Part shown: positions 266-19,170 of the stretch, piece by piece
Numbering within the stretch: position 1 is the first letter of the stretch
Layout: each line of letters starts with the position of its first letter
Source of the DNA: Escherichia coli
GTDB lineage: Bacteria > Pseudomonadota > Gammaproteobacteria > Enterobacterales > Enterobacteriaceae
Assembly: GCF_003334255.1 (NCBI RefSeq)
Contig: NZ_QOWU01000071.1
Strand: one strand, 5' to 3'
DNA length: 19,170 bases
Translations under genes and position numbers: made by a program
Notes under the pieces: model-generated
What the model was told of the DNA's origin: nothing
The model's database searches: none
What the model saw: the letters and a program-made list of their open reading frames with translations, nothing else

Positions 266-296
266 GCGTCAATACGGTGCTCCATTGACGCTTACA
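1..296 (+). mobile_element. IS66-family insertion sequence, 3' end only (window begins inside the element)
   Basis: Transposase C-terminal ORF ends at 265. 266-296 holds an 8-bp-stem hairpin (GCGTCAAT...ATTGACGC) and ends ...CGCTTAC, i.e. GTAAGCG on the other strand, which I recall as the IS66-type terminus. Exact boundary is inferred. Confidence 0.6.
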
Positions 297-1064: not shown

Positions 1065-1212
1065 AAATGTGTACGTTTAAGGGGCCATGAAAGAGATTGA
1101 TACCGTACCAGTTATATGAGACAACGTCAGCAGTGATTTTCTCTGAAGCGCAAATTTAATTTTTACCGTCCGCAGAGCGATCCTCTTACGGACATGATTA
1201 ATCGGGGTCAGG
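1065..1212. promoter_or_regulatory. res-like region with divergent tnpR/tnpA promoters
   Basis: 148-bp intergenic region between divergent tnpR and tnpA containing inverted half-sites (GTCCG...CGGAC); position fits a resolution site. Subsites not mapped. Confidence 0.45.
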
Positions 1213-4260: not shown

Positions 4261-4292
4261 CGGAAATTTCGGCGGTTCCGGCGTAGAACCCC
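4255..4292. repeat. 38-bp terminal inverted repeat of the Tn3-family transposon (tnpA-proximal end)
   Basis: Reverse complement reads GGGGTTCTACGCCGGAACCGCCGAAATTTCCGTTACCC (outer GGGG, inner end overlapping the tnpA stop). No matching second copy found in 1-500. Confidence 0.7.
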
Positions 4293-4909
4293 ATATCGCT
4301 CTTACTAGGGGAGCAGTAAACCAAAAATGAAAAGTATTATTAAAGAGAACGTTGGCAGGAGCAGAGGTAGTGACAGAATCACCAAATCCCTGTCAATATG
4401 TGATTTTTTGTTCTTAACGTGGTATCTGAAATTCACTCGTTTATCCGTTTTCACATAACACCTGCCATTTGCTTTACCTGGCCTCTTAAGTTGTATGAGG
4501 CATAATTTATTCCAGACAATATTTTATGGCCACTTTTAACCTGTGCCATTTATTACCTCGTCATTATATCGTCACCAGGATATGCCGCGTCAGCGGCATG
4601 GAAGGCGGCACGCTGTGGTTACATGTGATACCGGAGTAAAACCGCCGAAGCCCGGCGTCAGCCGGTACGGATTGATAGATTTCACCTTACCCATCCCCAG
4701 CCCTGCCAGACCATATCCGCTTTCAGCCATGACAGAGCTTCTGTGCGCGGTCGGAGTGGTCCCGACGAGGGTTTACCCGAAGTCGGGGCGTATCTCCGCG
4801 TTAGCGGGCCGTCAGGGCCGCTTACGAGCGTGTACTCGATACGTCCAGCCAGAAGACTGGCAGCGATGACAATGTAGTTACAACATTCATAATTAAAAGC
4901 GATGTTGTT

Positions 4910-4941
4910 CCCGCCCTTCGGGCGGGGGCGGCCTCGCTTTT
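4910..4941. other. GC-rich hairpin (7-bp stem CCCGCCC/GGGCGGG, 3-nt loop) followed by a short T-run
   Basis: Seen directly at 4910-4926, T-run at 4938-4941; function unknown, lies between the transposon end and the origin region. Confidence 0.3.
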
Positions 4942-5079
4942 CAGTTATGAGGGGTGGGCACGGTGCTGCGTTTGTGTGGTGTTTTTATTCCTGATGTCTT
5001 TTTGCTGTGGTTTCAGCGGTGAGGTTCGGGGCCCGCGCGTCAGCGTGGGAGGTGCATATCAGTCTGTCCACAGGACAGG

Positions 5080-5280
5080 CATTGAACAGGTTTTCTTTTT
5101 AAATGGAAGTAATTAAGTAGTTTAAAGGAAATACAGTACTGGAGTTTAAAAGAAACATTGCACCCTGTAACGCCTGCGGCTGGCGCTTTATAGCATTAAC
5201 GGTTGTAACCTTATGGAGAAGTCCCTTGCAGTTAAATGTGGATAAACAGAATTACCCGTCTGTGAGACGTGTTTTGCGTG
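5080..5280. promoter_or_regulatory. IncFII-type replication origin region (oriR) candidate
   Basis: AT-rich stretch at 5090-5160 and a consensus DnaA box TGTGGATAA at 5237-5245, about 175 bp downstream of the repA stop, the position of oriR in R1/R100-type replicons. Confidence 0.45.
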
Positions 5281-5420
5281 AAAAACAGGGGGAGCATGAT
5301 GAGCCGGAAGGCAGATGATGAGGCTGTTTTTTGTGTGCTGTGCTGCTTTTTTGTGCGTCGCCGGGCTTCAGACGTGCGGAAGCCTCCGGCGCAGGCCGGA
5401 TTATTCAGATGAGGTCAAAC

Positions 5421-6293
5421 TCAGGGTGAGGCAGTGGCCAGCCGTGTGTAGTTGTTGTTCCGCGACATTATCATGCGCTCCTTCACGCGACGGTCGATTT
5501 CGCGCTTCACGGCTTCCAGGCTTCCCCGGAAACGCCCTTCCGCAATTTCACGCGTCAACTGCCGTTTCACCAGGGTGACAATGTCCTGACGGGTCCGGCC
5601 CGCATCACGGCGCGCACGGGCACGTTTCATGCCGTGGGCCTTGCGCTCTGCCTGGTAACTGCGGAAACGCTCGCGCACAAAACGCCAGGCTCTCGCTATC
5701 AGTTCATCCATACCCAGCGCATCCAGCCCCTGCTTTTTGCGCAGCTTGTTTTCCCATTCCACGCGGCTGCGGCGTGCGGAAGCCACCGCCTCTTCAGAGA
5801 TATCGAGTGAGGCAAACAGTGCCGGCGTGAACGTGATGTCGGTCGGAATGTTACAGCCAATTGTCGGGTCGTATTCCGTCTGGTAGGTCATCAGCCCCAG
5901 CTCAGCCAGGAACTTCAGGGCACGGGTGGCACGGGTGATGGAGAGTTTCCCGGCCTCAGACTCCGTCGCCAGTCCGCACTCAATGGCCAGCGTGGTGATG
6001 GAGCACTGCACGCGGTTGGCCAGCGGGTCATAGTGGAAACACAGCCCCTGCAGCAGCGCATCAATCGCCCTTCGGCGCAGCACTGGCGGCATACGCCGGC
6101 GCAGGCCGCGCGAACGTGCATACGCCACATGCGCGGCAAAATCAAAACGGGAGGTGAAGCCCACGGCCTTTTCCATCAGTTTTTCGCAGAACTTCAGCGT
6201 TCCGGCATCTTCACGGGGTGTGAAGACCGGATTCGGGTTCTTTACCTGACGGTATGTGCTTTCAGTAAATGAGGTCTGGTTCAGGGCCGCCAC
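5421..6293 (-). CDS. repA: IncFII-type replication initiator RepA (RepA1)
   Basis: 290 aa; [86 protein letters not shown] and the C-terminus RLATASP match R1/R100 RepA1 as I recall it, along the whole length. GTG start. Confidence 0.92.
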
Positions 6294-6370
6294 AAGCTGT
6301 CGCTTATGGCGGGCACAGAATGCCGTGCGTTAATGCACTGCAAGGGGTTGAATCTCTGACACGGTTTCAT
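6281..6370 (-). CDS. Leader-peptide ORF (29 codons) overlapping the repA start (tap/repA6-like)
   Basis: ATG at 6370-6368; stop TGA at 6283-6281 lies 10 nt inside repA, as in IncFII translational coupling. Peptide sequence itself not recognised. Confidence 0.4.
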
Positions 6371-6456
6371 ATATACTTATCCCGTATTCTGTGAGGCCCC
6401 CACTATCTTTCTTGAGCCCGCCAAAGTTCATCGAAAGATAGTGGGGGTTTTCCTTT
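6365..6456 (+). ncRNA. CopA-like antisense RNA (5' end uncertain)
   Basis: Plus-strand hairpin with 15-bp stem CCCCCACTATCTTTC/GAAAGATAGTGGGGG (6396-6447) followed by TTTTCCTTT; antisense to the tap start/RBS region. Possible -35 TTGAAT (6348-6353) and -10 TATACT (6372-6377). Confidence 0.45.
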
Positions 6457-7129
6457 ATGGTCTTCTGAAACTTTTTTCAGCCTTCCGGCCCCGGCAAACA
6501 GCCGTCGTTTCTGCCATACATCCTGAATGCCTTATGGCGCATCCTGCCGTTTTCTGACTTTCCGGATCGCGAGGATCCCAAAAGCCACTGCATAACGATC
6601 CGCAATATACCTCGTTTCCACCGCTTTGAAAAGCCGACATGATTTCTCAGGGTTACAGTTGCCCTCTTTAACTCCCCGAAAAAGCGTCGTTTTTTTGAAC
6701 TCTGTCAAAAAAATGAACAATTCCGCAAACGATCTTTTATGCTGTGTTTTTCATCATTTTTAGTAGAAGAGATCGCGTTATTTTTTTAAACGATCTAATC
6801 GTCCACAAATCGCATTTGACTCAGAACAATATACTGCTTTATTTGATGTAACAATCTATTCAACTGCTTATTTGGACTATTGCCACATATGCAACCTTGT
6901 GTAGCATGTTTATCAGCCATTAATCCTGTTTGGGTAATTGGCAGTTTTCGCCCGCCTCGAAACTGTCAAAAAGGCTTACAAGAGTGCACAACGCATGTGC
7001 CTGTCAGAACTGCAGGCCGGGCTGAACGAGGGTCAGCCGCTGTTTCCGACACATGCTTTATGTATTCGCCGTTCACAACAACATCGAAGCCCCCCTGCGG
7101 GGATCGATTTTCGCGGAGCGTTCCGGATT

Positions 7130-7636
7130 TTGAATATCAGTGAATTACATCAACGCAACTGGTATCTGGCACAGTACATTGCTGCCGGTAAAAATCGCGA
7201 ACATCTCTTTTCCTGGCTTTCCGAACAACACGTCCTTCCCTGGACACCCCTGATACTGAAAAAGGTCCGCCGTACGGATAAAGTCTGTGGTTACCGTCGT
7301 CATATACACGCCGTGTTTCCCGGTTACTTCTTCCTGAAAGCAGACCCCGAACGCCACGCTTTCACTCACCTGCGCCGTCACAGTGCCTTTCTGGACTTCG
7401 TGAAAATGGCCGGTGAAATCAAAACCGTCAGGGAGGATATCGTTCAGTCCCTGATGAAAGTGTACCCGGATCCTGCGCTCAATCCGGCAGCCAGGGAGGA
7501 GCTGGATGCTGCCTCCACCCTCTGGCTGACAAAAGCGCGTTACCAGTACCTCCTCCGGCTTGATGCACAGCCTCTGCCGGAGTCGAGGATCGCCCTGCTC
7601 CTGCACCTGGTATCTGATGACGGAGCGTTGACATGA
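7130..7636 (+). CDS. NusG/RfaH-paralog (NGN domain) transcription antitermination-like protein; start codon uncertain
   Basis: NWYLAQY...HAVFPGYFFLKADPE...SAFLDFVKMAG aligns by eye with the RfaH N-terminal domain (WYLLYC...EPLFPNYLFVEFDPE...VSHFVRFG). The ORF is open from 6938 (TTG); 7130 TTG follows a GGAG at 7115-7118. No clear KOW motif in the C-terminal part. Confidence 0.65.
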   Translation: MNISELHQRNWYLAQYIAAGKNREHLFSWLSEQHVLPWTPLILKKVRRTDKVCGYRRHIHAVFPGYFFLKADPERHAFTHLRRHSAFLDFVKMAGEIKTVREDIVQSLMKVYPDPALNPAAREELDAASTLWLTKARYQYLLRLDAQPLPESRIALLLHLVSDDGALT

Positions 7637-7663
7637 AAATTGCTGTCTTCATTTGACGACTTT

Positions 7664-7690
7664 CCCGGCCTTTATGGCCGGGCTTTTTTT
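7664..7690 (+). terminator. Intrinsic terminator T1
   Basis: CCCGGCC-TTTAT-GGCCGGG followed by CTTTTTTT. Confidence 0.55.
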
Positions 7691-7696
7691 CCCCAA

Positions 7697-7752
7697 TGCC
7701 CGGCACCGGTGACACCTGCGTGTACGGAGAGCGGCTGCCGGGCATTTTTTTT
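7697..7752 (+). terminator. Intrinsic terminator T2 (long hairpin with 9-bp closing stem) immediately upstream of the next RBS
   Basis: TGCCCGGCA ... TGCCGGGCA followed by eight T; ends 1 nt before the AGGA RBS of the gene at 7765. Confidence 0.5.
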
Positions 7753-7764
7753 CAGGACATCGTT

Positions 7765-8280
7765 ATGACCATTCAATCCCCGGAAAACCCTGTCATTCAG
7801 TTACTGGAGAATATGCTTGAAGCGCTCTCCACCTCCCCGGACAGCATCAACAATGAACGACGTCGCCGGCGCTTCCTGCTGAACTGGCTTGATTCCGCCC
7901 GACAGATGAGTGAGTTCAGGGGGATGCCTGAAGAGTTCACCGCCCTGCGCAAACTGCTGGCCACCAATACGGACATACCGGTAGAGAACACGCTGAAATC
8001 ACTGCTGGAAAGTGGCCACAACGCAGCACTGTATGACCTGTACCGCTTCCGAGCAGCGCTTGCCACGTGCAGGAGTCTGGGATGGCAGATTGGCACGTGC
8101 GCATGGAATGACCAGTTACTGAGTGAGACACTTTCCCGCGCACAGACCGGGAAACGTCATATCCTGCAGCTGAACAGCACCGGGGACACCTTTTCCACCA
8201 CGGGCAGAATGATCAGACCGGTGGCATTTTCATTAATCCATCCGGCCACCATCAACACGTCTGAGGTTGAAGAGATATGA
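7765..8280 (+). CDS. Hypothetical soluble protein (171 aa)
   Basis: ATG at 7765 with AGGA 8 nt upstream; longer ORF from 7696 rejected because its start lies inside terminator T2. ATGA overlap with the next gene. Confidence 0.6.
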   Translation: MTIQSPENPVIQLLENMLEALSTSPDSINNERRRRRFLLNWLDSARQMSEFRGMPEEFTALRKLLATNTDIPVENTLKSLLESGHNAALYDLYRFRAALATCRSLGWQIGTCAWNDQLLSETLSRAQTGKRHILQLNSTGDTFSTTGRMIRPVAFSLIHPATINTSEVEEI

Positions 8281-8810
8281 CCGGCATTGGTAACTGGATA
8301 GTCAGCGTGCTGATTGGATATGCTGCTGGCCCCCTGTGGGCTGCCACCCACCTGGGAACAAGCCAGGACCGGGGAAGCCGGGCCGCTTACGGTTACATCT
8401 ACCTGATAGACAGCATGATCAGACCGCTGGTGATGGTATTCGGGTTCTTTTTTGCATCGGTCTCCATCGTGGCCGGCGGCACCATTCTGAATGCGTTGTT
8501 TGGCGCGGCTCTGGTTAATGTGCAGGCGGACTCCCTTACGGGGTTATTCAGCATCGCTGGATTTTTGCTGATTTATGCCCGAGTCTGTACCACGCTGGTT
8601 GCGGCCGTTTTTGCGCTTCAGGCTTATCTGCCTGACCATGTGATTAATTTTCTGGGCGGACGTGACGGCGTTAATATGCTGGGGAATATGGCATCTTCGG
8701 TCAAAGATATTATTGCTGGCGGAAATACCAATATGCGCAGAACACCTGGCGTACGTGAAGAAAAACTGAAAAATATTAAAGGAGATGATAAAGACGGAAT
8801 AAAACAATAA
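8277..8810 (+). CDS. Hypothetical integral membrane protein (177 aa)
   Basis: Several hydrophobic segments (IVSVLIGYAAGPLWAA, LVMVFGFFFASVSIVAGGTILNALFGAAL, LFSIAGFLLIYARVCTTLVAAVFAL), hydrophilic lysine-rich tail; coupled to upstream gene. Confidence 0.6.
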   Translation: MTGIGNWIVSVLIGYAAGPLWAATHLGTSQDRGSRAAYGYIYLIDSMIRPLVMVFGFFFASVSIVAGGTILNALFGAALVNVQADSLTGLFSIAGFLLIYARVCTTLVAAVFALQAYLPDHVINFLGGRDGVNMLGNMASSVKDIIAGGNTNMRRTPGVREEKLKNIKGDDKDGIKQ

Positions 8811-8850
8811 AATGAAAATATCTAAAAACCAATAAAACAGTATTGCCATA

Positions 8851-8884
8851 TTCACCTGAAGAGATTAAAATATACTCAGGTGAA
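8851..8884. promoter_or_regulatory. Perfect 9-bp inverted repeat (TTCACCTGA / TCAGGTGAA) flanking a TATACT element just upstream of the RBS of the 8899 gene
   Basis: Seen directly; candidate operator or leader hairpin. Confidence 0.3.
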
Positions 8885-8898
8885 TATGGAGGTTTATT

Positions 8899-9546
8899 AT
8901 GAGTACAACAAAAAACAGATATCCTTCCTGGTGGGCATATTATTACCTTGTTCGCAATGCGTATTTCATATTTGGCATACCATGCTTATTATTTTATGCT
9001 TTTTTCGGAACACTAATTGTTCATGATTCAGCCTTATCTCAAACAATGGATTTTGTTTTTGCATATGGATGCTGGGCATTAATAATTATCCCATTACTCT
9101 GGCTATATCTGAGAACCAGAGCGAAGAAAAAGAAAGTCCTGCAGGTTGTTCAGCAGATAAAAGAAAGCAGTCTCTTTGCGCCGACCAGCGATTATGAGCA
9201 ACTGTCATTCTCGAAGAGTTGTTATTTCGGGATCGACATTAAAAACGGCACCATGCTGTATGTGCGTATTTATCCAAACAATGTGATGGATGTGATTGGT
9301 CTGGATATTCACAACTTTACCCGCACGGTTGCTGAGGACGGCAAACTGGAAATCCATACCACCTATGTGAGTCTTCCGATGATCCCACTGGAAATCTCCG
9401 GCATCTCATCAAGGACGCTGGCCAACACCATGCACACCATGGCTGCACGTGGATATGAGTACAAGGAACGTTTCCCGCAGATGATCCGGTATCGGGTTAA
9501 AGAGTGGGAAAAAGTTGCCGGTGTACCTGTTGCAGAAGTGTTTTAA
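8899..9546 (+). CDS. Hypothetical membrane-anchored protein (215 aa); AT-rich
   Basis: GGAGG 8 nt upstream of ATG; two N-terminal hydrophobic helices then a soluble domain; last 35 codons duplicated downstream. Confidence 0.6.
   Translation: MSTTKNRYPSWWAYYYLVRNAYFIFGIPCLLFYAFFGTLIVHDSALSQTMDFVFAYGCWALIIIPLLWLYLRTRAKKKKVLQVVQQIKESSLFAPTSDYEQLSFSKSCYFGIDIKNGTMLYVRIYPNNVMDVIGLDIHNFTRTVAEDGKLEIHTTYVSLPMIPLEISGISSRTLANTMHTMAARGYEYKERFPQMIRYRVKEWEKVAGVPVAEVF
9433..9546 (+). repeat. Direct repeat copy 1 (3' end of the 215-aa gene)
   Basis: About 110 bp near-identical to 9938-10051. Confidence 0.8.
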
Positions 9547-9562
9547 GACGGTTATCTCATAC

Positions 9563-9591
9563 ATCCGGTTCATCTGAACCGGATTTTCTTT
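9563..9591 (+). terminator. Intrinsic terminator after the 215-aa gene
   Basis: ATCCGGTTCA-TC-TGAACCGGAT followed by TTTCTTT. Confidence 0.5.
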
Positions 9592-9614
9592 ACTGCAACA
9601 GATAACTTATGTCG

Positions 9615-9824
9615 TTATCGATAAAGTCGCCCAAGAGCCTTGATAGCTGCAACTTTAATTTCCATATCATCACTTTCACTTAATCTACGTAATTCCCTCT
9701 TTATGTTATCTGCCTGGCATCGACCTTCACCTAATGCATAGATCACAGCAAGTGTAACGTCTTTTGATTTATCCTTCATCATTTCAAACAAGAAAGTATT
9801 AGCTATCGCAGGAGACATACTCAT
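9615..9824 (-). CDS. Small hypothetical protein (69 aa), AT-rich, helical-repeat-like
   Basis: Strong RBS (AGAGGA, 8-nt spacer); sequence ...AAIKALGRLYR resembles a single HEAT/PBS-type repeat, tentative. Confidence 0.5.
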   Translation of the reverse strand: MSMSPAIANTFLFEMMKDKSKDVTLAVIYALGEGRCQADNIKRELRRLSESDDMEIKVAAIKALGRLYR

Positions 9825-9937
9825 AATAATTTCCTCTTTATAAAATTAACAAAGATACTCATTTAGATGTATAAACATCTGTATAATAAAATAACTCTTG
9901 CTAAACAAGAAATTAAAATCTTGCATCCACAGTCTCG

Positions 9938-10051
9938 CACACCATGGCGGCACGCGGATATGAGTACAAGGAACGTTTCCCGCAGATGATCCGGTATCGG
10001 GTTAAAGAGTGGGAAAAAGTTGCCGGTGTTCCTGTTGCAGAAGTATTTTGA
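9938..10051 (+). repeat. Direct repeat copy 2 (orphan copy of the gene 3' end)
   Basis: Differs from copy 1 at four positions plus the stop codon (TAA vs TGA); all four fall on third codon positions and are synonymous. Confidence 0.8.
9944..10051 (+). CDS. Orphan 35-codon ORF identical in protein sequence to the C-terminus of the 215-aa protein
   Basis: ATG-initiated MAARGYEYKERFPQMIRYRVKEWEKVAGVPVAEVF; no obvious Shine-Dalgarno, so expression is uncertain. Confidence 0.3.
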   Translation: MAARGYEYKERFPQMIRYRVKEWEKVAGVPVAEVF

Positions 10052-10083
10052 GGTAGCTATCAACTGTTAGACGATAATCCGTC

Positions 10084-10114
10084 AGCCGGTTTTCTCTGAA
10101 CCGGCTTTTTCTTT
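10084..10114 (+). terminator. Intrinsic terminator after the orphan module
   Basis: AGCCGGTT-TTCTCTG-AACCGGCT followed by a T-run. Confidence 0.5.
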
Positions 10115-10166
10115 TCAGGCAGAATGCCTGTCTGCCGTCCCTGTATCAGACTGTAATTTGCACAAT

Positions 10167-10181
10167 ACGGCAATTTGCCGT
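10167..10181. promoter_or_regulatory. Perfect 15-bp palindrome ACGGCAATTTGCCGT; candidate antitoxin operator
   Basis: Located 26 bp upstream of the antitoxin start codon, in the promoter region. Confidence 0.45.
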
Positions 10182-10206
10182 ACAGTGTATTCAGGAGGTA
10201 CAAATC

Positions 10207-10488
10207 ATGCCATCTGCAACACAAACTGCCCGACTGGAAGCAAGAATCAGCACAGAACTGCATGCTATGCTGAAACGCGCTGCAGAAATCCAGGGACGCA
10301 CTATGACCGATTTTATCATTTCTGCCGTTCAGGATGCGGCACAACGCGCTATAGAACAAACCGATATCATCCGACTGTCCCGGACAGATCAGGAAATTTT
10401 TGCTCAGGCATTACTGTCACCAACAGAACCTAATGATGCGCTCAAACGGGCCTTTAAACGCCGTAATAATATTCTATACACAAAATAA
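10207..10488 (+). CDS. DUF1778-type (ribbon-helix-helix) antitoxin of a GNAT toxin
   Basis: 93 aa; AGGAGG RBS; ...LEARISTELHAMLKRAAEIQGRTMTDFIISAV... is typical of TacA/KacA-type antitoxins; immediately upstream of the GNAT gene. Confidence 0.85.
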   Translation: MPSATQTARLEARISTELHAMLKRAAEIQGRTMTDFIISAVQDAAQRAIEQTDIIRLSRTDQEIFAQALLSPTEPNDALKRAFKRRNNILYTK

Positions 10489-10493
10489 ATATA

Positions 10494-10982
10494 ATGTTTC
10501 AGCTGAAACCATTTAACAGCACATATGACAGAACCTCATTTTTATGTGGTTCTGATGCTCTGGACCGTTATATAAAAGAGCATGTCACACAGGATATTCG
10601 ACGACGCATCGCGGCCTGCTTTGTTGCTATAGATAACGATCATCGTATCATCGGATACTATACGTTATCAGCGGCCAGTATATTATTAACTGACTTACCT
10701 GAGCATTTGAGAAAAAAGCTACCACGATATCCTACCATCCCGGCTATTCGTATGGGACGCCTGGCAGTAAGTCTGTCATCAAAAGGAACAGGACTTGGTG
10801 GGACACTTTTAGCTGATGCGCTATATCGTGCATACACATCTGAAATTGCAGCATATGCGCTGATTGTTGATGCAAAAGATGACACGGCAGTCTCATTTTA
10901 CAAACATTATGGATTTATGACGCTCCCGGAGTCAGGGCGAACTTTATTCATGCCACTGGCATCATTATCTGCAATAGAATAA
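10494..10982 (+). CDS. GNAT-family acetyltransferase toxin (TacT/KacT/AtaT-type)
   Basis: 162 aa acetyltransferase fold (…RMGRLAVSLSSKGTGLGGTLLADAL…FYKHYGFM…), 5 bp after the antitoxin stop. Confidence 0.85.
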   Translation: MFQLKPFNSTYDRTSFLCGSDALDRYIKEHVTQDIRRRIAACFVAIDNDHRIIGYYTLSAASILLTDLPEHLRKKLPRYPTIPAIRMGRLAVSLSSKGTGLGGTLLADALYRAYTSEIAAYALIVDAKDDTAVSFYKHYGFMTLPESGRTLFMPLASLSAIE

Positions 10983-11553
10983 CCAGAATAAATCCGGGTA
11001 AAAAAGGGCGCATTGAGGTCAGCCTTCGCAACAATCCGGCGGCAGATTCCCTGCCGCCGTGTTGCCCGTTAACGTTTAACTTCGTAGGCTAACGTTGCCA
11101 CAAGCACCGTATTTCCCTGCTCGATACGAAATCCGCAAAGCGAATCCCTCACCATCCAGACAAAACACAGTATCGTCACACAGAGGACAATTAACATTGT
11201 TAAAAACGTTCGTTGTAGCATCGCAGCCCCTCCATTGCCTTTCGGCCGTTATCGGGCTACTATAATGTTGTCTAGGCATTACAGTAGAGCCCTGGGTTGA
11301 TTGATAAAAAAATCGCCTGGGGCTTCTGCTACATGCCGTCCACAAAACGCTTTCGGCATACAGCCTCAAGCGCCCGCAGCTATTCTAATCGTTTTTCAGT
11401 CTGCCACAATCGTTTTCCATCTAATGACATGTAATGCGCAACGGTATTTTTACGGGAAACAACACGGCAAGGATTCCCGGAACACGTCCATTATTTTATG
11501 GTTACGGACATCATGTTAAATCAGAAAGTAATAATGACCTGAAAGGAAATGGT

Positions 11554-11796
11554 ATGAGTAACGAATACCAAAGCACCAGTATAAACCCGGATGTTTTTGA
11601 ACAATTTCTTACCCTTCTTAATACACACTGCCAGTCCTCAGAAGAGTCGCTCGCCATGCTCAGCACGCTGTGTTTTGACCTTATGATGAAATGTGGTATT
11701 CAGTCAATGGACAGCCTCATGCTCAACGGTATGGGCATATCAATGCAACTTCAGGGTATTGATAATCACAACTGTACAACCTGGAATATTCACTGA
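11554..11796 (+). CDS. Hypothetical small protein (80 aa)
   Basis: ATG at 11554 preceded by AAAGGAAA; the longer ORF from 11434 lacks an RBS. No family recognised. Confidence 0.4.
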   Translation: MSNEYQSTSINPDVFEQFLTLLNTHCQSSEESLAMLSTLCFDLMMKCGIQSMDSLMLNGMGISMQLQGIDNHNCTTWNIH

Positions 11797-11839
11797 CCTT
11801 AGTCTGGACTGAAAACAGTGTCAGCCAGAAATAAACGAT

Positions 11840-11863
11840 CAATGCCTCATACACATGAGGCAT
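11840..11863. terminator. Hairpin between convergent genes (10-bp stem AATGCCTCAT/ATGAGGCATT, 4-nt loop)
   Basis: Seen directly; no strong U-tract on either side. Confidence 0.4.
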
Positions 11864-11888
11864 TGATAACGGTCATAAATAATCTTTA

Positions 11889-13436
11889 TTATTTTTCTGA
11901 TTCAGCATTTCCGGTCAGTACAGGCTCTTCTGGCAAAGACATTACCGGAACGTCACGTTCGCCATTGAATACAGAAACACTTTCGGTGAAACCATTCTGT
12001 AACAAAGAAAAACTTAACGGCAGATTTTTGGTTTGTATCCCTGTGATCCATTGAAAAATCTCGGGAAAACGACGGGCGCTGATATGCACATGATTGAGGC
12101 GGTGCTCAGTAATATCACTTGCCATCATCATGAGAGGCACATCGTATCCCGAACGCAAACCTGGCGCATGATGCACAGGGGTGCTGTCTGAACTGACGGA
12201 TTGCCCATGATCAGAAAAATACAGCATGGCAAAATCATCGCCATGCTCTGTCGTCATGTTATAAATTGCCTGAAGAAACCGATCCAGCTTAAGCAATGTT
12301 GATAAATAACAGGATACTTTATTTCCGAATAATTCCCTGAACGGCTGTGCATCATTAAAAAGTCTGTCACAGGGATTAGGATGGGATCCCAGCATATGAA
12401 TGAAAATCACTTTTGGAGAAGACGAATTAACAGCTTCCCTGACATACTGAAGCATATCTTCATCATCAATGCGACGGGAAGAAGAGTTCCCTTCCTTAAG
12501 AAAATATTTCTTATCCGCACTGGCGGCGATGACAGAAATCAGCGTATCATGTCGCCCTAAAGAGCCCTGATTTGATATCCACCACGTTTCATATCCGGCT
12601 TTTCTGGCAAGCGTAACAATATTATTACCCGGATTACCTGTTTCAGTGTAATCAAGAGTCAGTGTTCTGCTGAGTGAACCTGTCGTATTCGGAGCAGCGG
12701 AGAAATACCCATTAATAAATATACCCGGAGCAGAGTTCAGCCATGGTGTTGTCGGCAAAGGATACCCATAAACAGAAAGATAATCCCGTCTGACACTTTC
12801 ACCAATTACGATAATTATAGTTTTATATTTCTTCTCCACACTCACAATATCCCATGAGTCTTTCTGATTGTTTTTCAGCGATTCATATCGCATCATTTCT
12901 TCTCTGGTTTCAGCTATCCCCGTTATTACATTCGTAACCATACGTTTTGGCCATGCATTTACTGACAATACGATAAAGAACAACAGAAAGATAAATCCCC
13001 GGTGGCTTTTTTCACGCTTACGCCAGAACCAGAATGTAAAAGCAGCAATGACCAGTGAAACAATAAAATAAAAAACAGGTATGCCTGTGATAAATTCACC
13101 TGCCTCATTTATATTTGTCTGCATTACAGACGCAATAAAACTGTTGTTTATTTTTCCGTAAATCATTCCAACCGGAGCATAGAATGCACTTAACAAAAGA
13201 AAGATACAGACACACGTCGCTGAAATAACATTCCGCCGCCCCAACGACATCATCAGGAACAATATAAGTACATTCCCTGTGGCGTTTTTCACTGTATATC
13301 CGCAGCACCATGTAACAAGTACAGAAAACAACAGATAAATCAGTGACTCTTTACACCACAACATAAAATAAAACTGTTTTGCCATCTCAAAAGCACATTT
13401 GGATTTTTCTTTAATACGAGACACGCCAGTCATTTT
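11889..13436 (-). CDS. Phosphoethanolamine-transferase-like membrane enzyme (sulfatase/alkaline-phosphatase superfamily, EptA/MCR/OpgE-like); start uncertain
   Basis: N-terminal hydrophobic helices followed by a catalytic domain with IIIVIGESVRRDYLSVYGYP, KVIFIHMLGSHPNP and AMLYFSDHGQS, resembling the VVGETARADHVSFNGY / MLHQMGNHGP / MLYVSDHGES blocks of MCR/EptA. AT-rich. ORF open to 13445 (TTG); first ATG at 13436. Confidence 0.75.
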   Translation of the reverse strand, partial: KMTGVSRIKEKSKCAFEMAKQFYFMLWCKESLIYLLFSVLVTWCCGYTVKNATGNVLILFLMMSLGRRNVISATCVCIFLLLSAFYAPVGMIYGKINNSFIASVMQTNINEAGEFITGIPVFYFIVSLVIAAFTFWFWRKREKSHRGFIFLLFFIVLSVNAWPKRMVTNVITGIAETREEMMRYESLKNNQKDSWDIVSVEKKYKTIIIVIGESVRRDYLSVYGYPLPTTPWLNSAPGIFINGYFSAAPNTTGSLSRTLTLDYTETGNPGNNIVTLARKAGYETWWISNQGSLGRHDTLISVIAASADKKYFLKEGNSSSRRIDDEDMLQYVREAVNSSSPKVIFIHMLGSHPNPCDRLFNDAQPFRELFGNKVSCYLSTLLKLDRFLQAIYNMTTEHGDDFAMLYFSDHGQSVSSDSTPVHHAPGLRSGYDVPLMMMASDITEHRLNHVHISARRFPEIFQWITGIQTKNLPLSFSLLQNGFTESVSVFNGERDVPVMSLPEEPVLTGNAESEK

Positions 13437-13591
13437 CCTGTACAAAAACAGACAATCATTTCAACGCATGGATATTTATATGAAACAGCTCACAAAAATA
13501 CCCTGCTCTGTCTAGCAAGATTACATATTATCAGGTTTTGTGTTTACAGCAACTGCTCCCCGGACCAGATTATTCGCATAACCCGATGAAT

Positions 13592-13612
13592 GACTCATCA
13601 TTATGATGAGTC
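13592..13612. other. Perfect hairpin GACTCATCA-TTA-TGATGAGTC just downstream of the 151-aa gene
   Basis: Seen directly; possible terminator or regulatory element. Confidence 0.35.
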
Positions 13613-13623
13613 TCAGGATTCAT

Positions 13624-14079
13624 TTAGTTAACAAAAATACTTCTTGCCTTCCCGGAAAGGCAAACATACGAAAGAGAAAGCATGGCTATAATAATATCAA
13701 TCAAAATATGCTCAATCTTTCCTGTTGTCATACATTCAGCACCGACAACATAAAGACAATAAACAAAAGTGACAGCATGGTGTGATATATAAAGAATATA
13801 AATGCACAGAAGTAATTTTCCGACGACTCTTTTCCGTTTAAAGAAAGAATAAATGAAGAACAAGCATAAAGCCGCCAGAAAAAGAAAGGTAGCTATGGAG
13901 ATTATAAAATACTCCATCACCTGTGAATTCTCATCCAGAGATGTGTACAGCGAATAATATGTGGCTGTGAGATTAAGTCCCGTTATCAATATATAAACAA
14001 CTGATAATAGTATAATATAAAGAATCAGACCAAATCTGGTTTTCTGTGCTCTGGTTAATACTTCTGATTTATCTCGCAT
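13624..14079 (-). CDS. Hypothetical integral membrane protein (151 aa), AT-rich
   Basis: About four hydrophobic segments; no family recognised; upstream of the transferase-like gene on the same strand. Confidence 0.5.
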   Translation of the reverse strand: MRDKSEVLTRAQKTRFGLILYIILLSVVYILITGLNLTATYYSLYTSLDENSQVMEYFIISIATFLFLAALCLFFIYSFFKRKRVVGKLLLCIYILYISHHAVTFVYCLYVVGAECMTTGKIEHILIDIIIAMLSLSYVCLSGKARSIFVN

Positions 14080-14166
14080 AAAATATCCTGTCTGTAATCT
14101 GTCCCGGTAAACAATGGTAAACGTCAGAATCAGTGCGAATACGGTAACAAAGATTCCTCCTGTGCT

Positions 14167-14847
14167 TTAAAGTGTGTAGGCAGAAACCAGTCTGGTGGTT
14201 CCGGTCAGGGTGTCTGATACCTCAACTTCCCGGGTGACTATCACCATACCTGACTGACGCAGTCTCTGCACATCAGCTGCAATTCGCTGAGTTCCCGGCC
14301 AGAACAGACCATCCAGCGCGGTGACAATTAACCCGCTTTCCAGCGCCAGTTTCAGCCGTGCTGTCGGGGCTTTAACCTGCCCGGCGATATCAGTGAAACA
14401 ACGCGTCGTCATGCCATAGCTGTCCACCCGCCGTATTCGCGTCGCAAGACTGTAGCTGAAGCAATCCGGCACGCCGGATAAGTCATTCTGCAGACTGTAT
14501 ACACATCCCCGCTGCCGCCCATTGAACAGGACTTTTTTCTGGCTGAGCAGCCATTCCCGCCGCAGGCTGTCAATCATCTGCGGGGTCCGCGTTAACAGCA
14601 GACGAAACGGCAGCTCAAAACTGGTCACATAATCAACATTAAGTAAGGCTGTCCGCAGCCGTTCCCTGGCACCTGCTCCGGTATCACGGCATTCACGCAT
14701 GACATCTTCCCACTGGCGCATCAGTTGCGGAGACTTATGCCTGGCCCTGAACTGATATTTCTCAATCTGATAATCAATATATTCCTGCATACCGTCACCG
14801 GATATCTGTTGCCGTCTCATCACGGATATCAGCGTACTGGAATTCAT
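14167..14847 (-). CDS. Hypothetical protein (226 aa)
   Basis: Long ORF with GC content above its neighbours; divergent from the nuclease gene. No family recognised. Confidence 0.55.
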   Translation of the reverse strand: MNSSTLISVMRRQQISGDGMQEYIDYQIEKYQFRARHKSPQLMRQWEDVMRECRDTGAGARERLRTALLNVDYVTSFELPFRLLLTRTPQMIDSLRREWLLSQKKVLFNGRQRGCVYSLQNDLSGVPDCFSYSLATRIRRVDSYGMTTRCFTDIAGQVKAPTARLKLALESGLIVTALDGLFWPGTQRIAADVQRLRQSGMVIVTREVEVSDTLTGTTRLVSAYTL

Positions 14848-14950
14848 GCCCTGCCTGAAGTATCACACTGCAAATAATAAACACGCCTGAGCATTATTAT
14901 TTCGCAATATTAATTGCACCTGTTTTCATAAATAAAAAGGACAAGATAAA

Positions 14951-15436
14951 ATGATAAAATATATATTCGCACTCACACTTCTGCTTTCCGGTTCTGTCTG
15001 TGCCGATCAAATTCAGGGACACGTTATTCGTGTGCTGGACGGTGATACTCTGGAGATATTACAGGCCCGGCATCCCGTCAGAATTCGTCTTGTTAATATT
15101 GATGCGCCGGAAAAGAAACAGCCTTTTGGACGCTGGTCAATGAATCAACTTAAAAGCCTTGTGGCAAATACACCCGTAACCGTGACATACACACAGACAG
15201 ACCGCTACGGGCGTATTCCGGGACGGGTATATACCGAAAACGGTATGGAAGTTAACCGCTGGCTGGTACAGCATGGTGCAGCCTGGGTATATCCTGATTT
15301 CAATACAGATTACACCCTGCCGGCATACCAGAGAGAAGCCAGAACAATGAAACGGGGTCTGTGGGCAGACAAAAAACCTGTTCCACCATGGCTGTGGCGA
15401 AAAGAAAATAAAAACAACCACAATAATTATAAATAA
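14951..15436 (+). CDS. Secreted thermonuclease (staphylococcal-nuclease-like)
   Basis: Signal peptide MIKYIFALTLLLSGSVCA; SNase motifs RLVNIDAPE and DRYGR; AAGGA RBS 8 nt upstream. Confidence 0.85.
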   Translation: MIKYIFALTLLLSGSVCADQIQGHVIRVLDGDTLEILQARHPVRIRLVNIDAPEKKQPFGRWSMNQLKSLVANTPVTVTYTQTDRYGRIPGRVYTENGMEVNRWLVQHGAAWVYPDFNTDYTLPAYQREARTMKRGLWADKKPVPPWLWRKENKNNHNNYK

Positions 15437-16104
15437 GATATCTCACAGGAATATATTTCCTGCCGTTTTATTTCCCCTGTTAGTCTCCAGCGGGAAATAA
15501 CATCCAGAAGTTACACTGATATGAATAATAAACCTGTTCAATGTGTCCGTCACTAAAGTGAACTCAGCCCCTTATGGAAAATATTGTAAATGATGGATGA
15601 ATGCTGAATACATTTCCCGGGGAGTGGCAGAAACAGATAAGTTGATGTCTGACTCAGAAGAAAATACGCCTGTAGCGCCCTGCATTTCATAACATTTCTG
15701 TTACAGCAACAACGAAAGCCGACAGTAATGCCGGGCTTTTACGTCCACATGCATATTCCACTTATCCGGAATTGTGACACAGCACCTGAATACAGGATTG
15801 ATCACCGGTGCCCACAAATGGCACATTTTCAGTAAGATTCCGAATGTTACATTACCCCGTCATGTGTGACGCAGTTGTCACCGGGAAAGAAACAGAAAGC
15901 ACATGAAAAACATAAAAACTCACACAGGACTCCTTATCCACAAAGAACAAACACGACGCGTTCGTCTTCATGAAACACCGGCCGCCTGGTGCCTCACACA
16001 CCGGGAATGCTACAGCAAAACAACCGGTCGCCGCTGCGGCAGCCCTGACAGTCTCAGCAGGCTGATTCTGAGCAGCATTCAGCCCATAGAATGAGATAAC
16101 CCGT

Positions 16105-16470
16105 ATGAATGATGACAGACAGACGCCTCCGGCACCCGATGCATGGAAAATCCGATTTCTGGCTGACGGTACACCCGGCACATGGTTTTACACCGATGAC
16201 GCAGCCGTCACAAAAGAGTGGCTGCGGGCACATTGTGACGATGTGGAAGTGATCCCCCTGTGCCGTATGCATGACGGTCCCGTTTTCCGGGAACACCATA
16301 TTAATGAACTCAGCGCCGCACTGGCCAGAATGCTCCATATGCACCACATACTGCTGGAACGAACCCGGTACAGAGAAAATATCCATGATGCAGAATGTAT
16401 TCGTGAAATTCACGAAGCTCCCCTGCAGGCTATCGGCATCCTGGAAAAATACAAACGCACAAAATCATAA
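16105..16470 (+). CDS. Hypothetical protein (121 aa)
   Basis: First gene of a compact three-gene plus-strand cluster; no family recognised. Confidence 0.45.
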   Translation: MNDDRQTPPAPDAWKIRFLADGTPGTWFYTDDAAVTKEWLRAHCDDVEVIPLCRMHDGPVFREHHINELSAALARMLHMHHILLERTRYRENIHDAECIREIHEAPLQAIGILEKYKRTKS

Positions 16471-16479
16471 GGCTGTTCT

Positions 16480-16671
16480 ATGTGGATACTGATTTTCTGG
16501 CTCTCATCCCCCTTTAATGTCTCCTCCGGCGATGCCCGGCAACCCACACTGGCCGTTCACAGTCAGGAGTTCCGTACTGAAAAAGCCTGTCGGGATGCCT
16601 TCACCGCGCTGAAAAAAGAAAACGTGGGAGAATTTGCTCTCCGGGGCGTCTGCGTCCCCGGCGGAGAATAA
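16480..16671 (+). CDS. Hypothetical small protein (63 aa) with hydrophobic N-terminus
   Basis: AAGG 9 nt upstream; MWILIFWLSSPF... could be a signal or anchor segment. Confidence 0.4.
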   Translation: MWILIFWLSSPFNVSSGDARQPTLAVHSQEFRTEKACRDAFTALKKENVGEFALRGVCVPGGE

Positions 16672-16704
16672 ACCGGAGATGATGATTATCCACAGGAGTA
16701 TTCA

Positions 16705-17028
16705 ATGGCATACCATCCCCCGGATGTCACACGGCATTATCCTTATCTGCGCCGGATGTCCTGGGCGCAGATAACGGCAGCAGCTGAAGATGCGGAAATA
16801 CATCATGATTATGCCCGGGCATTAATATTGTGGCAGCATGCATATCATGCTGCCACGTTGACCATTAACAAAAACCTGGCAACCGCTAAAATCCACTTCT
16901 GTGCTAAACGCCTTCAGATACGTGAACAAATGAGCAGGATAATCCGGAATACTGGCACAGACGAAATACTCTTCCGTCTGAGTAAACACCATCATTTATA
17001 TGAGAAAAAGAAAACAAAAGAGGGGTGA
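16705..17028 (+). CDS. Small helical protein (107 aa), possibly ANR-like (AraC negative regulator family); tentative
   Basis: AGGAG RBS 8 nt upstream; the ...YARALILWQHAYHAA...FCAKRL... pattern resembles ANR-family proteins as I recall them. Not verified. Confidence 0.45.
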   Translation: MAYHPPDVTRHYPYLRRMSWAQITAAAEDAEIHHDYARALILWQHAYHAATLTINKNLATAKIHFCAKRLQIREQMSRIIRNTGTDEILFRLSKHHHLYEKKKTKEG

Positions 17029-17176
17029 GGGTGAGAAACCCCTTGTATGGGAAAAACTTGCCATGCTCACTGCAGGTGCATTTTTGATACTGGCAATCCT
17101 GGGTGAGTAATCTTAATATCCTGTTTATTAAAGGGCAGAAGGCGGTGCCCCTCTGCCCTTAAGTACGTTTCCGGGA

Positions 17177-17287
17177 TTATCTGTCAACCAGTTCCCGGAT
17201 CAGCTCCAGGATAGCTATCACTGCATTGGCCACAGCAACAACAGCCCTGAGAACGATGATTAACAGGTTAATCATCCGCTTCTCCAT
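17177..17287 (-). CDS. Type I toxin-like small hydrophobic peptide, copy A (36 aa; 32 aa if started at second ATG)
   Basis: MEKRMINLLIIVLRAVVAVANAVIAILELIRELVDR; GGAG lies 7 nt upstream of the second ATG (17275). Copy B differs almost only at synonymous sites. Confidence 0.6.
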   Translation of the reverse strand: MEKRMINLLIIVLRAVVAVANAVIAILELIRELVDR

Positions 17288-17534
17288 CAATGGAGAAAGA
17301 ACGCCGTGGTTTGCCCTTACATTGCCTGTCGCCACGTTTTCTATAGTGTCAGTTATAGACAGTTCTTCTCCGGCCAGAGCACCAAAACCAGCACCACCTG
17401 ATGTTTTGGCCAGGACTTGCAATCTGTTCATCCCTGGAACGATATGCCGGAAAGAACGTACCTCAAGGCTGACACACCGAGTATATACTTATACGATGCT
17501 TGCAGAAATATTATTTCAGCCGTATTATTTCATA

Positions 17535-17621
17535 GTCAGTTATAGACAGTTATCTTCCGGTCAGGGCTACCAAGTTCGATCCGGAATCGTAAAAAAACCG
17601 GCCTCACCAGTCGGTTTTTTT
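17535..17621 (+). ncRNA. Candidate antitoxin small RNA, copy A
   Basis: Sigma70-like promoter TTGCAG-17 nt-TATTAT (17500-17528); intrinsic terminator ACCGGC-CTCACCA-GTCGGT plus seven T (17597-17621). 5' region 17535-17551 is a direct repeat of 17348-17364, hence complementary to the peptide mRNA leader. Confidence 0.4.
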
Positions 17622-17878
17622 ACATCTGTATATATCTGCTCCGGACTGCGCCCTGAGTCTCCCGTTGAAAATTGCCTTTTGAATTTTACGAAATACGGCA
17701 AATGGTGGATGGATGTCGAATATATTTCCAGGGGAGTTCCGGGGAAAAGCCGGCTCATGTTTGACTCACGGGAACAGACGCTGGAAGTGCAGAAAGATTT
17801 TCGATTTTTAACCTGAGCATATTTTGTTAAAGGGCAGAAGACGGTGACCCTCTGCCCTTAAGTACGTTTCCGGGATTA

Positions 17879-17986
17879 TCAGTCAACCAGTTCCCGGATC
17901 AGTTCCAGGAGAGCTATCACTGCGTTAGCCACAGCAACAACCGCCCTGAGAACGATGATTAACAGGTTAATCATCCGTTTCTCCAT
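17879..17986 (-). CDS. Type I toxin-like small hydrophobic peptide, copy B (35 aa)
   Basis: MEKRMINLLIIVLRAVVAVANAVIALLELIRELVD; versus copy A five synonymous changes, one I-to-L change and loss of the terminal Arg. Confidence 0.55.
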   Translation of the reverse strand: MEKRMINLLIIVLRAVVAVANAVIALLELIRELVD

Positions 17987-18279
17987 CAATGGAGGAAATC
18001 ACTGTTGTTTACTCTTACATTGCCTGTCACAACAGCTCTTTCATTGTTAGCTGAAAAGAGACTTCCTCCGGCCAGAGCACCAGACGCAGCACCACCTGTT
18101 TGTCTGGCCAGGTCTTTGAATAGCACAGATCCATAGTCCCGATGGATTGATGCGAAGGTAAGTCTCCAGACAAGGCTAACTTGCTGATTATACTTGTTTC
18201 AGGCGATATCGCTACTCCCGGAACAATAGACTGTAACGAACAGATTGCGATCAGGTGAATATAACGATATTCTGGTAAC

Positions 18280-18366
18280 GTTAGTTGAAAAGAGACTTCC
18301 TCCGGGCCAGAGCCACCAACTCTCCCTGGGATCGCAAAAAAGCCGGCCTCACCAGTCGGCTTTTTT
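18280..18366 (+). ncRNA. Candidate antitoxin small RNA, copy B
   Basis: Promoter-like TTGCGA-17 nt-TATTCT (18245-18273); terminator GCCGGC-CTCACCA-GTCGGC plus T-run (18341-18366). 18286-18305 is a direct repeat of 18052-18071 in the copy-B peptide leader. Confidence 0.35.
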
Positions 18367-18579
18367 GTGCCTGTCTCTCACCACCTTCTGCTGTTCCTGT
18401 GAAAATGCCCTGCTGAATTCATCCCTGCCCGGTCATTACCGGCGATTGTTCGTATTCATTCCACTCAGCCTCATCACGAAATTAATCCATTTATCTATGG
18501 AGGAATCCCCGTGTCTTACCAACAGACGTCTGCCAGTGAAGCACCAACAGAGATTTGGTATATCGTCGGTATCATATGC

Positions 18580-19170
<591 letters not shown>

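Follow-up and report, generated by a model that had tools for sequence, protein, structure and literature searches.

An AT-rich interval next to excA on an Escherichia coli IncK2/Z plasmid and its place in a variable cargo region

The window analysed here is a 19,170-nucleotide stretch of plasmid DNA from Escherichia coli (contig NZ_QOWU01000071.1, assembly GCF_003334255.1). Its interval 8811-14100 had been presented, in a preliminary description made from the sequence alone, as two AT-rich islands that lie in a GC-richer backbone, are separated by a GC-richer toxin-antitoxin (TA) pair and were acquired stepwise from different sources. Our analysis speaks with good confidence for another view, namely that the interval belongs to the variable cargo region between traY/excA and trbA of an IncK2/Z plasmid and forms its proximal part, that it has been shaped by modular recombination, and that its AT bias does not date the arrival of its genes. 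The comparisons consist of pairwise BLAST searches against five K2/Z-type relatives and two plasmids typed IncI-gamma/K1, and of counts of matching plasmids in PLSDB.

Genes and features of the interval

Positions 6294-19170 of the window are 100% identical to the E. coli plasmid NZ_CP145705.1, and positions 1-19104 to NZ_CP060058.1. Both plasmids are typed IncK2/Z, a member of the I-complex (NZ_CP145705.1 by MOB-suite/PLSDB), and the replicon itself agrees with this typing. The IncFII-family gene repA (5421-6293, minus strand) encodes a RepA that scores 564.5 bits against TIGR03474 (cut-off 446.9), and a repZ-type pseudoknot control region (6306-6455) matches Rfam PK-repZ with 162.5 bits against 44. 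Genes for a Tn3-family transposase (tnpA) and a resolvase occupy the left part of the window, and a NusG/RfaH-like gene (7130-7636) precedes a match to a gene annotated traC (7640-8276), which is joined at about position 8277 to the last 534 bp of traY. This traC'-'traY deletion junction stands in place of the whole pil/tra region, leaving no complete IncI-type transfer apparatus (pil, tra/trb), and the plasmid identical to the window is classed in PLSDB as mobilizable only and has no annotated pil/tra genes. Downstream of the junction follow excA, an open reading frame (ORF) for a 69-aa HEAT-repeat protein, a DUF1778/GNAT pair, hok/sok, an 80-aa hypothetical gene, a phosphoethanolamine (PEtN) transferase gene and a DUF2569 gene, so that excA and the downstream cargo are kept intact in this non-conjugative derivative.

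The traY remnant (8277-8810, plus strand) is a 3' portion of a DotA/TraY family gene (TIGR04346 DotA_TraY, 135.5 bits, profile positions 526-656), and homology to other I-complex plasmids begins at its first position, 8277. Its last 140 bp or so are AT-rich, and the stretch 8671-8898 has a GC content of only 0.329. The AT-rich traY-excA intergenic region contains a near-perfect palindrome (8846-8889; 21-nt arms, 86% complementary, 2-nt gap) that stops 10 nt before the excA start codon and for which a role as terminator, operator or translational hairpin is conceivable. The gene excA (8899-9546, plus strand) is identified as an IncI1-type surface or entry exclusion gene by its NF033891 score (267.8 bits, cut-off 100, profile positions 2-210 of 210) and by its synteny with traY in all relatives. 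Its product has two transmembrane (TM)-like segments at residues 21-42 and 49-72, and homologues occur in about 2,200 PLSDB plasmids. As judged from the gene content, ExcA may still exclude incoming plasmids here, despite a resident plasmid that is unable to build a transfer apparatus.

The next segment (9548-9936, GC 0.342) contains the 69-aa ORF (9615-9824, minus strand) that RefSeq annotates as a HEAT-repeat protein. The segment is matched in 1,207 PLSDB plasmids, with IncI1-type copies at about 84% nucleotide identity. Between IncI1-type and K2/Z plasmids the ORF region 9558-9865 is likewise about 84% identical, and the adjoining excA just about 69%, so this small and unstudied ORF is better conserved than the exclusion gene beside it.

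The TA genes share the plus strand, 5 bp apart and antitoxin first, an arrangement that predicts a type II TA pair: a DUF1778 (ribbon-helix-helix, RHH) antitoxin of 93 aa, so named by RefSeq (10207-10488), and a GNAT toxin of 162 aa (10494-10982). Matches in the Protein Data Bank (PDB) are KacA (5zgn_A) and 6ajm_C/7zg5_C for the antitoxin (E 3e-9 to 2e-6) and 6ajn, 6gts, 6g96 and 5zgn for the toxin (E 3e-22 to 7e-21). KacT is the depositors' name for the matched toxin, and the remaining toxin entries are presumably AtaT and TacT. The pair reaches no curated NCBIfam equivalog.

On the minus strand, a 50-aa type I toxin gene (11069-11221), assigned by RefSeq to the Hok/Gef family, abuts at its 5' end a match to the sok region (11219-11375, minus strand; Rfam RF01794, 116.2 bits, gathering score 59), which identifies a hok/sok locus. 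The ORF scores below the curated cut-offs for HokA (57.7 bits against 89, E 8.6e-16) and for the Hok subfamily (35.6 against 73), and is thus a divergent Hok. The 80-aa hypothetical gene (11554-11796, plus strand) accompanies hok in K2/Z-type plasmids and is 81-82% identical to its counterparts in pSH275-2 and pDV10.

The largest gene of the interval (11889-13424, minus strand) encodes a 511-aa membrane enzyme of the PEtN transferase superfamily. The catalytic motifs IGES, NTT, GSH and SDHG are conserved in an alignment with EptC and with the YhbX/YhjW/YijP/YjdB-family chain 4kav, three hydrophobic segments lie within residues 27-135, and Pfam PF08019 and PF00884 match a relative that is 95% identical. 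Its best match of solved structure is EptC (E 1e-22), and OpgE (31.5% identity) is the nearest among the annotated hits in the plasmid collection, with CptA and MCR proteins at 23-29% over the catalytic domain. The curated models for particular members all score far below their cut-offs: MCR-1 to MCR-8 at 18-27 bits against 1100-1250 (MCR-1 at 19 against 1100), EptA at 81 against 561 and 49 against 660, CptA at 101 against 404 and 96 against 900, and EptB at 37.5 against 493. The enzyme is therefore filed, on its predicted sequence, at the superfamily level only, and is not an equivalog of MCR, EptA, EptB or CptA. Beside it lies a gene for a 151-aa DUF2569 membrane protein with four hydrophobic segments (13624-14079, minus strand).

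To the right of DUF2569 come an ECs1377-family gene, nuc, three small hypothetical genes and two dqlB/AgrB-type loci. The ECs1377-family gene (14167-14790, minus strand; 207 aa), annotated as helix-turn-helix (HTH)/DNA-binding, scores 288.6 bits against NF052300 (cut-off 190). The preliminary description had given it as 14167-14847, which is the longest ORF (226 aa); the shorter span is that of RefSeq, and the family model covers residues 18-205 of the shorter product. The small hypothetical genes 3' of nuc (15903-16670) are about 72% identical to genes that are placed elsewhere in pSH275-2 (locus 11458-12222), pDV10 (locus 6045-6809) and pJKHS006_1, with the 80-aa gene on one side and the HTH or transferase genes on the other, and are either paralogues or a relocated block. 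Farther right, matches to dqlB (17177-17275 and 17879-17974) and AgrB (17536-17623 and 18281-18368) mark tandem DinQ-like type I toxin loci in two copies, with AgrB-type antisense RNA matches that barely exceed the Rfam gathering score; relatives have one or two copies of the locus.

Base composition and its causes

The GC content of the window (0.481 overall) is 0.520 at 1-8810, 0.399 at 8811-10100, 0.456 at 10101-11400, 0.394 at 11401-14100 and 0.529 at 14101-14850. Likelihood-ratio segmentation, judged against first-order Markov null sequences (200 for the left edge), places change points at 8670 (log-likelihood ratio, LLR, 56.1; null maximum 8.4) and at 14178 (LLR 31.3; null maximum 7.2). 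The outer edges are thus far beyond chance, and they enclose a single low-GC block of 5.5 kb (8671-14178) with a GC content of 0.41, compared with 0.52 to its left and 0.49 to its right. The low-GC stretch that the preliminary description had seen is accordingly real, as is the GC-richness of its surroundings (repA 0.604, tnpA 0.517, resolvase 0.564, the gene at 14167-14790 0.538), and the shifts predicted for a GC profile are significant at these edges. The division into two islands fares less well. Segmentation returns one marginal internal split (12767; LLR 8.4, null maximum 7.5). The proposed inner boundaries at 10100 and 11400 give an LLR of 7.6, which none of 300 nulls reaches if the boundaries are fixed beforehand, but which has P = 0.12 when compared with the best two-boundary split of each null sequence. 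The best internal breaks lie elsewhere, at 9095 and 12795 (LLR 16.7; 0 of 300 nulls).

The TA pair is also not what raises the GC content between the supposed islands. The bump comes mainly from the hok/sok segment (11001-11416, GC 0.493), together with a 203-bp remnant of an excA tail (9937-10139, GC 0.498), and the TA module (10140-11000) has a GC content of 0.434. With GC 0.461 and 0.425 and third-position GC (GC3) 0.362 and 0.325 for antitoxin and toxin, against GC 0.427 and GC3 0.463 for excA, the TA genes do not form a GC-richer separator, and at the codon level they are as AT-biased as the islands that they were said to keep apart.

Although the block is statistically real, it is unexceptional for this replicon, because 9.7% of the 5.5-kb windows in the closest complete plasmid, NZ_CP145705.1 (GC 0.472), equal or exceed its AT-richness; we therefore rejected the notion that the block stands out from the plasmid that carries it. 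Other short dips (GC 0.39-0.44) lie outside the flagged interval at 4201-4600, 6401-7000 and 15401-15800, one of them just upstream of the repA control region (PK-repZ, 6306-6455), so the mosaic extends beyond 8811-14100.

Two layers make up the low GC content. For each gene we computed an expected GC content from its amino-acid sequence, with synonymous codons used as in the tra/trb genes of K2/Z plasmids (reference GC 0.571), and divided the deficit into an amino-acid and a codon-choice term. These are, respectively, -0.076 and -0.067 for excA, -0.069 and -0.093 for the transferase gene (GC 0.409), -0.109 and -0.124 for the DUF2569 gene (GC 0.338), -0.015 and -0.095 for the DUF1778 antitoxin gene, and -0.025 and -0.120 for the GNAT toxin gene. 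AT-biased synonymous codon use is thus common to the whole block, TA pair included, with GC3 values of 0.29-0.46 in block genes versus 0.54-0.70 in backbone genes. On top of this layer, the GC content drops further at TM segments rich in Phe, Ile, Leu, Tyr, Asn and Lys: hydrophobic TM-like codons have a GC content of 0.326 in excA (0.458 in the rest of the gene), 0.327 in the DUF2569 gene and 0.382 in the transferase gene. About half of the extra AT-richness of these three genes stems from the amino-acid composition of membrane proteins. As a consequence, it is largely TM-coding sequence that underlies the two stretches richest in AT (8671-9095 and 12796-14178), and the soluble TA proteins, with little of an amino-acid effect, look GC-richer, though the third positions of their genes are the most AT-biased among the larger genes. 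It is this second layer, on top of a general codon bias, that creates the appearance of two islands.

Several findings bear on whether AT-richness dates the arrival of genes or marks their donors. Low GC content is common to excA in both lineages, with 0.43 against 0.53-0.60 for tra genes in K2/Z plasmids and 0.39 against 0.50-0.53 in IncI-gamma/K1 plasmids, and the HEAT ORF has a GC content of 0.38-0.39 in both groups. The transferase/DUF2569 pair of pJKHS006_1 is a divergent allele in the same place, adjoining HTH-nuc; its transferase gene is 77.7% identical to the window copy, and the stretch of DUF2569, HTH and nuc is 79.2% identical, so that AT-rich and GC-rich neighbours have diverged together and kept their contrast. 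GC-normalised dinucleotide signatures, a noisy measure at these lengths, do not set excA plus HEAT (P = 0.75) or the transferase module (P = 0.61) apart from the tra backbone, in contrast to the TA module (P = 0.003), and the two supposed islands differ from each other by a delta* of 40 in a test that is underpowered at 0.9-2.3 kb; we take the dinucleotide result as weak evidence. Taken together, the data do not support AT-richness as a reliable sign of recent arrival, nor of separate donors.

Exchange, duplication and loss among related plasmids

The segment with the traY tail and excA (8277-9547) is present in all relatives, at 96% identity in pSH275-2, 88-93% in the others and about 70% in the IncI-gamma/K1-typed plasmids. 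Beyond it, breakpoints map to 9547/9937, 10139/11001 and 11822/14169. Within these limits the HEAT segment, the TA module and the transferase/DUF2569 pair vary in presence among the relatives, and excA and hok occur in every relative examined. Per-segment identities also disagree between relatives, a signature of recombination: pSH275-2 is 96% identical in excA and 81-85% in hok and HTH-nuc, and NZ_CP027324 is 90% identical in excA and 98% elsewhere. The comparison with related backbones thus bears out the idea of a mosaic, with modules present, absent or replaced independently between conserved anchors. As far as the aligned loci show, these modules are exchanged, duplicated and deleted independently, and much of the history of the region is loss, as seen in TA stubs and hybrid excA tails. 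The stepwise acquisition proposed in the preliminary description therefore stands in so far as the region is a stepwise mosaic, but losses and allele swaps have contributed too, and GC content neither identifies nor dates the sources.

Not every mark of a genomic island is present. The base composition is atypical compared with the flanks, and variable presence holds for the HEAT, TA and transferase/DUF2569 modules, but not for excA and hok. Mobility genes and target-site repeats are lacking at the borders: we found no integrase, transposase or tRNA at the block borders and no integrase or transposase gene within 8671-14178, and the sole long repeat in the block is a 125-nt duplication of the excA tail around the HEAT segment.

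The two copies of this direct repeat (93% identity, spacing 505) flank the HEAT segment. Copy 1 (9432-9556, plus strand) is the 3' end of the intact excA, and copy 2 (9937-10061, plus strand) is an orphan excA tail that runs into 78 bp common to K2/Z relatives (to 10139); the whole stretch 9937-10139 is 98% identical to NZ_CP027324 and pSH275-2. The orphan tail looks like the scar of an excA-cassette replacement. The HEAT segment directly follows excA in the IncI-gamma/K1-typed loci, is present in pDV10, and is absent from three K2/Z-type relatives, among them NZ_CP027324 and pSH275-2. HEAT-less plasmids have one excA tail, with the context of copy 1 upstream and that of copy 2 downstream, and the crossover points differ (before alignment column 25 in NZ_CP027324, after column 31 in pSH275-2). 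Hybrid tails with differing crossovers fit independent, repeat-mediated deletions of 505 bp.

Divergence within traY and excA is likewise uneven. The gene excA occurs in discrete allele classes, and identity dips in two patches, one in traY (8437-8596, 72-89%) and one in excA (8997-9076, 44-52% in three relatives), with flanks that are 95-100% identical. The excA patch of the window recurs in pSH275-2, and pDV10, NZ_CP027324 and pJKHS006_1 have the alternative one. Patches between near-identical flanks are the pattern expected of allele cassettes for exclusion specificity.

The whole TA module (10140-11000) is complete in 9 PLSDB plasmids only. Another 136 plasmids have instead a 155-bp TA stub (window 10140-10294), which comprises the promoter and the first 88 nt of the antitoxin gene and is fused to hok; the stub lies at locus positions 5001-5155 in pDV10, where it is annotated as a 53-aa hypothetical protein, and at the same positions of the locus from a further, HEAT-less relative. 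The complete module is present in NZ_CP027324 and pJKHS006_1, and in pSH275-2 a TnsA-N-domain gene takes its place. We rejected the TA pair as a backbone marker between two inserts, as no module is rarer and the other larger genes all have a higher GC3. It is cargo, not backbone, and the stubs indicate that it is being lost rather than gained.

The hok/sok anchor (11001-11416) is 81-90% identical in every relative compared, and the locus seems to act as portable homology for the insertion of cargo. In NZ_CP027324, hok/gef sequences lie on both sides of a VapBC pair (locus 3291-4702), and in pTW11681_74 hok-region sequence (window 11249-11416) is duplicated around finQ (locus 10419-10836 and 12089-12258).

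The transferase and DUF2569 genes are inherited together as a two-gene module (11823-14168), which is found in 117 PLSDB plasmids, 108 of which cover at least 80% of it, and which pSH275-2 and pDV10 lack, with sharp breakpoints. On the right the module ends at 14168/14169, matching the GC change point at 14178, which lies at the 3' end of the gene 14167-14790; the adjoining HTH-nuc segment (14169-15414) is specific to the K2/Z type. About 110 I-complex plasmids of E. coli carry the pair, which comes as two allele classes that share about 73% identity and invariably lies a few genes 3' of excA, within the cargo region. Peptide patterns of the PEtN transferase, scanned against 100,044 species genomes, turned up no donor, only short contigs and two remote hits. 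Transferase fragments 94-99% identical to ours lie on contigs of 266-514 bp in assemblies labelled Acinetobacter idrijaensis and Terrisporobacter mayombei, and are most likely assembly contamination. In a large protein database the homologues form a graded series. The 73% relative occupies this plasmid hotspot as well, the 53% relative neighbours malate synthase (glcB-like) and lactate-permease genes on a contig from a metagenome (GC 0.48), and the 38% relative lies on the chromosome of [Enterobacter] lignolyticus (GC 0.48); none of the three is close enough to be the source.

A model of the region and its relation to known systems

Together, our data speak for a model in which the interval consists of one backbone function, excA with its companion HEAT ORF, followed by accessory modules: a GNAT toxin/DUF1778 antitoxin pair, a hok/sok locus for post-segregational killing and a two-gene envelope module. 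The exchange would come about through homologous recombination between conserved stretches that serve as anchors: the 3' end of traY, the conserved 3' tail of excA, hok/sok and HTH-nuc. The AT bias would be that of enterobacterial mobile accessory genes at large, which are generally AT-rich, and would persist for long on the plasmid. If it is persistent in this way, it marks a gene as accessory or membrane-encoding, and not as a recent arrival from a particular donor.

Some points weigh against this model. The direction of gain and loss is inferred from scars and from few relatives, and the detailed inspection covered only about seven related loci. Since no donor genome was found, a foreign origin of the AT-biased codon use is itself conjectural, and low expression or AT-biased mutation on the plasmid could give the same codon bias. 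The equal divergence of transferase and HTH-nuc could also stem from the replacement of a larger block (11897-15414) in a single piece. Finally, the dinucleotide test has so little power at 0.9-2.3 kb that the halves of one module differ by a delta* of 97.

Three other explanations compete with the model. The view that the excA region and the transferase region are two AT-rich islands from separate low-GC donors, flanking a GC-richer TA pair of the backbone, draws on the plain GC values (0.399 and 0.394 versus 0.456 between), on fixed boundaries that beat 300 of 300 nulls, and on the transferase/DUF2569 module, with its sharp breakpoints, its absence from pSH275-2 and pDV10 and its occurrence in only 117 plasmids. 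However, allowing for the choice of boundaries removes the significance of the division, the bump between the islands stems from hok/sok and the excA-tail remnant, and the TA genes are rare cargo (9 plasmids) with a GC3 below that of excA. Moreover, excA and HEAT are ancestral to the I-complex and have a low GC content in each lineage examined, the dinucleotide signatures of the two islands resemble one another and that of the tra backbone, and the donor scan found no donor. This view is already partly refuted, and we regard it as unlikely.

Nor does it seem at all probable that the pattern is a pure coding artefact, in which the amino-acid composition of three membrane proteins (ExcA, the transferase and DUF2569) alone lowers the GC content and history plays no part. 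The amino-acid term does account for -0.07 to -0.11 of the deficit in these genes, TM-like codons are the AT-richest (0.33-0.38), and the best breaks lie near TM-coding sequence, 9095 just after the TM segments of excA and 12795 toward the 5' TM end of the transferase gene and DUF2569. But GC3 and synonymous codon use, when compared directly, are not equal in block and tra genes, codon choice contributes -0.07 to -0.14 in all genes of the block, even in those of the soluble TA proteins with almost no amino-acid effect, and the comparisons reveal real modular turnover. Chance fluctuation of base composition, without any biological meaning, could appeal to the further short dips (4201-4600, 6601-7000, 15401-15800) and to the roughly 10% of 5.5-kb windows in the closest complete plasmid that are as AT-rich, but the right edge is a comparative breakpoint, and the segmentation nulls, which come nowhere near the LLRs of the outer change points, refute this explanation, to which we attach next to no probability.

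A modular cargo region has an already described counterpart in IncI1 plasmids, whose trbA-traY segment has been called "a very variable region"; six variants of excA and nine of traY are reported there, and finQ is inserted with a duplicated intergenic sequence on either side (PMC8004404). The region described here resembles that of the R64/ColIb-P9 group in its place between traY/excA and trbA, in its hok/gef (pnd) and dqlB-type small toxins, in serving as a site of insertions (such as finQ with duplicated intergenic sequence) and in having several discrete excA/traY alleles; the finQ gene within duplicated hok-region sequence in pTW11681_74 matches the published IncI1 insertion (PMC8004404). 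It differs in that the K2/Z version is longer, in that HTH-nuc, the AtaT/TacT-like TA pair and PEtN transferase/DUF2569 are not in the IncI-gamma/K1-typed loci inspected, and in that the present plasmid has lost pil/tra through the traC'-'traY deletion. The alleles themselves recall the entry-exclusion specificities of ExcA/TraY in R64 versus R621a (PMC8004404). The NF033891 match, the paired patches (8437-8596 and 8997-9076) and the discrete classes suggest an allele system of this kind, though traY is reduced here to a 3' remnant. According to Sakuma et al., ExcA reportedly recognises segments of TraY. A transposon-sequencing (TraDIS) study of I-complex plasmids (PMC10286972) contains nothing on excA, exclusion, GC content or this region.

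The accessory modules, too, have known relatives. The TA pair resembles KacT-KacA as a two-gene operon, antitoxin first, of 93 and 162 aa (E about 1e-22 for the toxin and 1e-9 for the antitoxin), and also AtaT-AtaR and TacT-TacA, further GNAT/DUF1778 systems; it is unlike them in having no NCBIfam equivalog and in being reduced to the 155-bp stub in most related plasmids. The transferase shares with OpgE, EptC/CptA, EptA and MCR an N-terminal membrane domain and a sulfatase-type catalytic domain with metal-binding and nucleophile motifs, but is set apart by low identity, scores below the cut-offs and its pairing with a DUF2569 membrane protein. Low-GC islands acquired horizontally by enterobacteria are xenogeneic DNA, typically bound by H-NS. 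The block is like them in having GC and GC3 below those of the backbone, accessory content and variable presence. It is unlike them in that its borders lack integrase, transposase and tRNA, in that the dinucleotides of its main AT-rich parts are not deviant (in a noisy test), and in that excA, HEAT and hok belong to the ancestral backbone.

It is conceivable, though we rate the chance as low, that the transferase/DUF2569 pair is an envelope-remodelling module that alters the lipopolysaccharide (LPS) core or the periplasmic glucans of the host. If so, it might mask receptors for IncI-type thin-pilus adhesins, phages or colicins, and thereby add a second layer of "surface exclusion" to the one encoded by excA, or it might confer a cryptic, low-level tolerance of polymyxins. 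What the sequence shows is an apparently intact enzyme that is no MCR, EptA, EptB or CptA equivalog.

The region is ordinary plasmid biology of a kind that is already known: between excA and trbA, IncK2/Z plasmids vary in the way described for IncI1, and this has little import beyond annotation. Of some practical interest is the plasmid-borne, non-MCR PEtN transferase/DUF2569 pair in about 110 E. coli plasmids. Beyond that, the interval is a worked example of the fact that low GC content alone does not amount to recent acquisition, since membrane-protein coding and long-lived, AT-biased accessory genes leave just such a trace.

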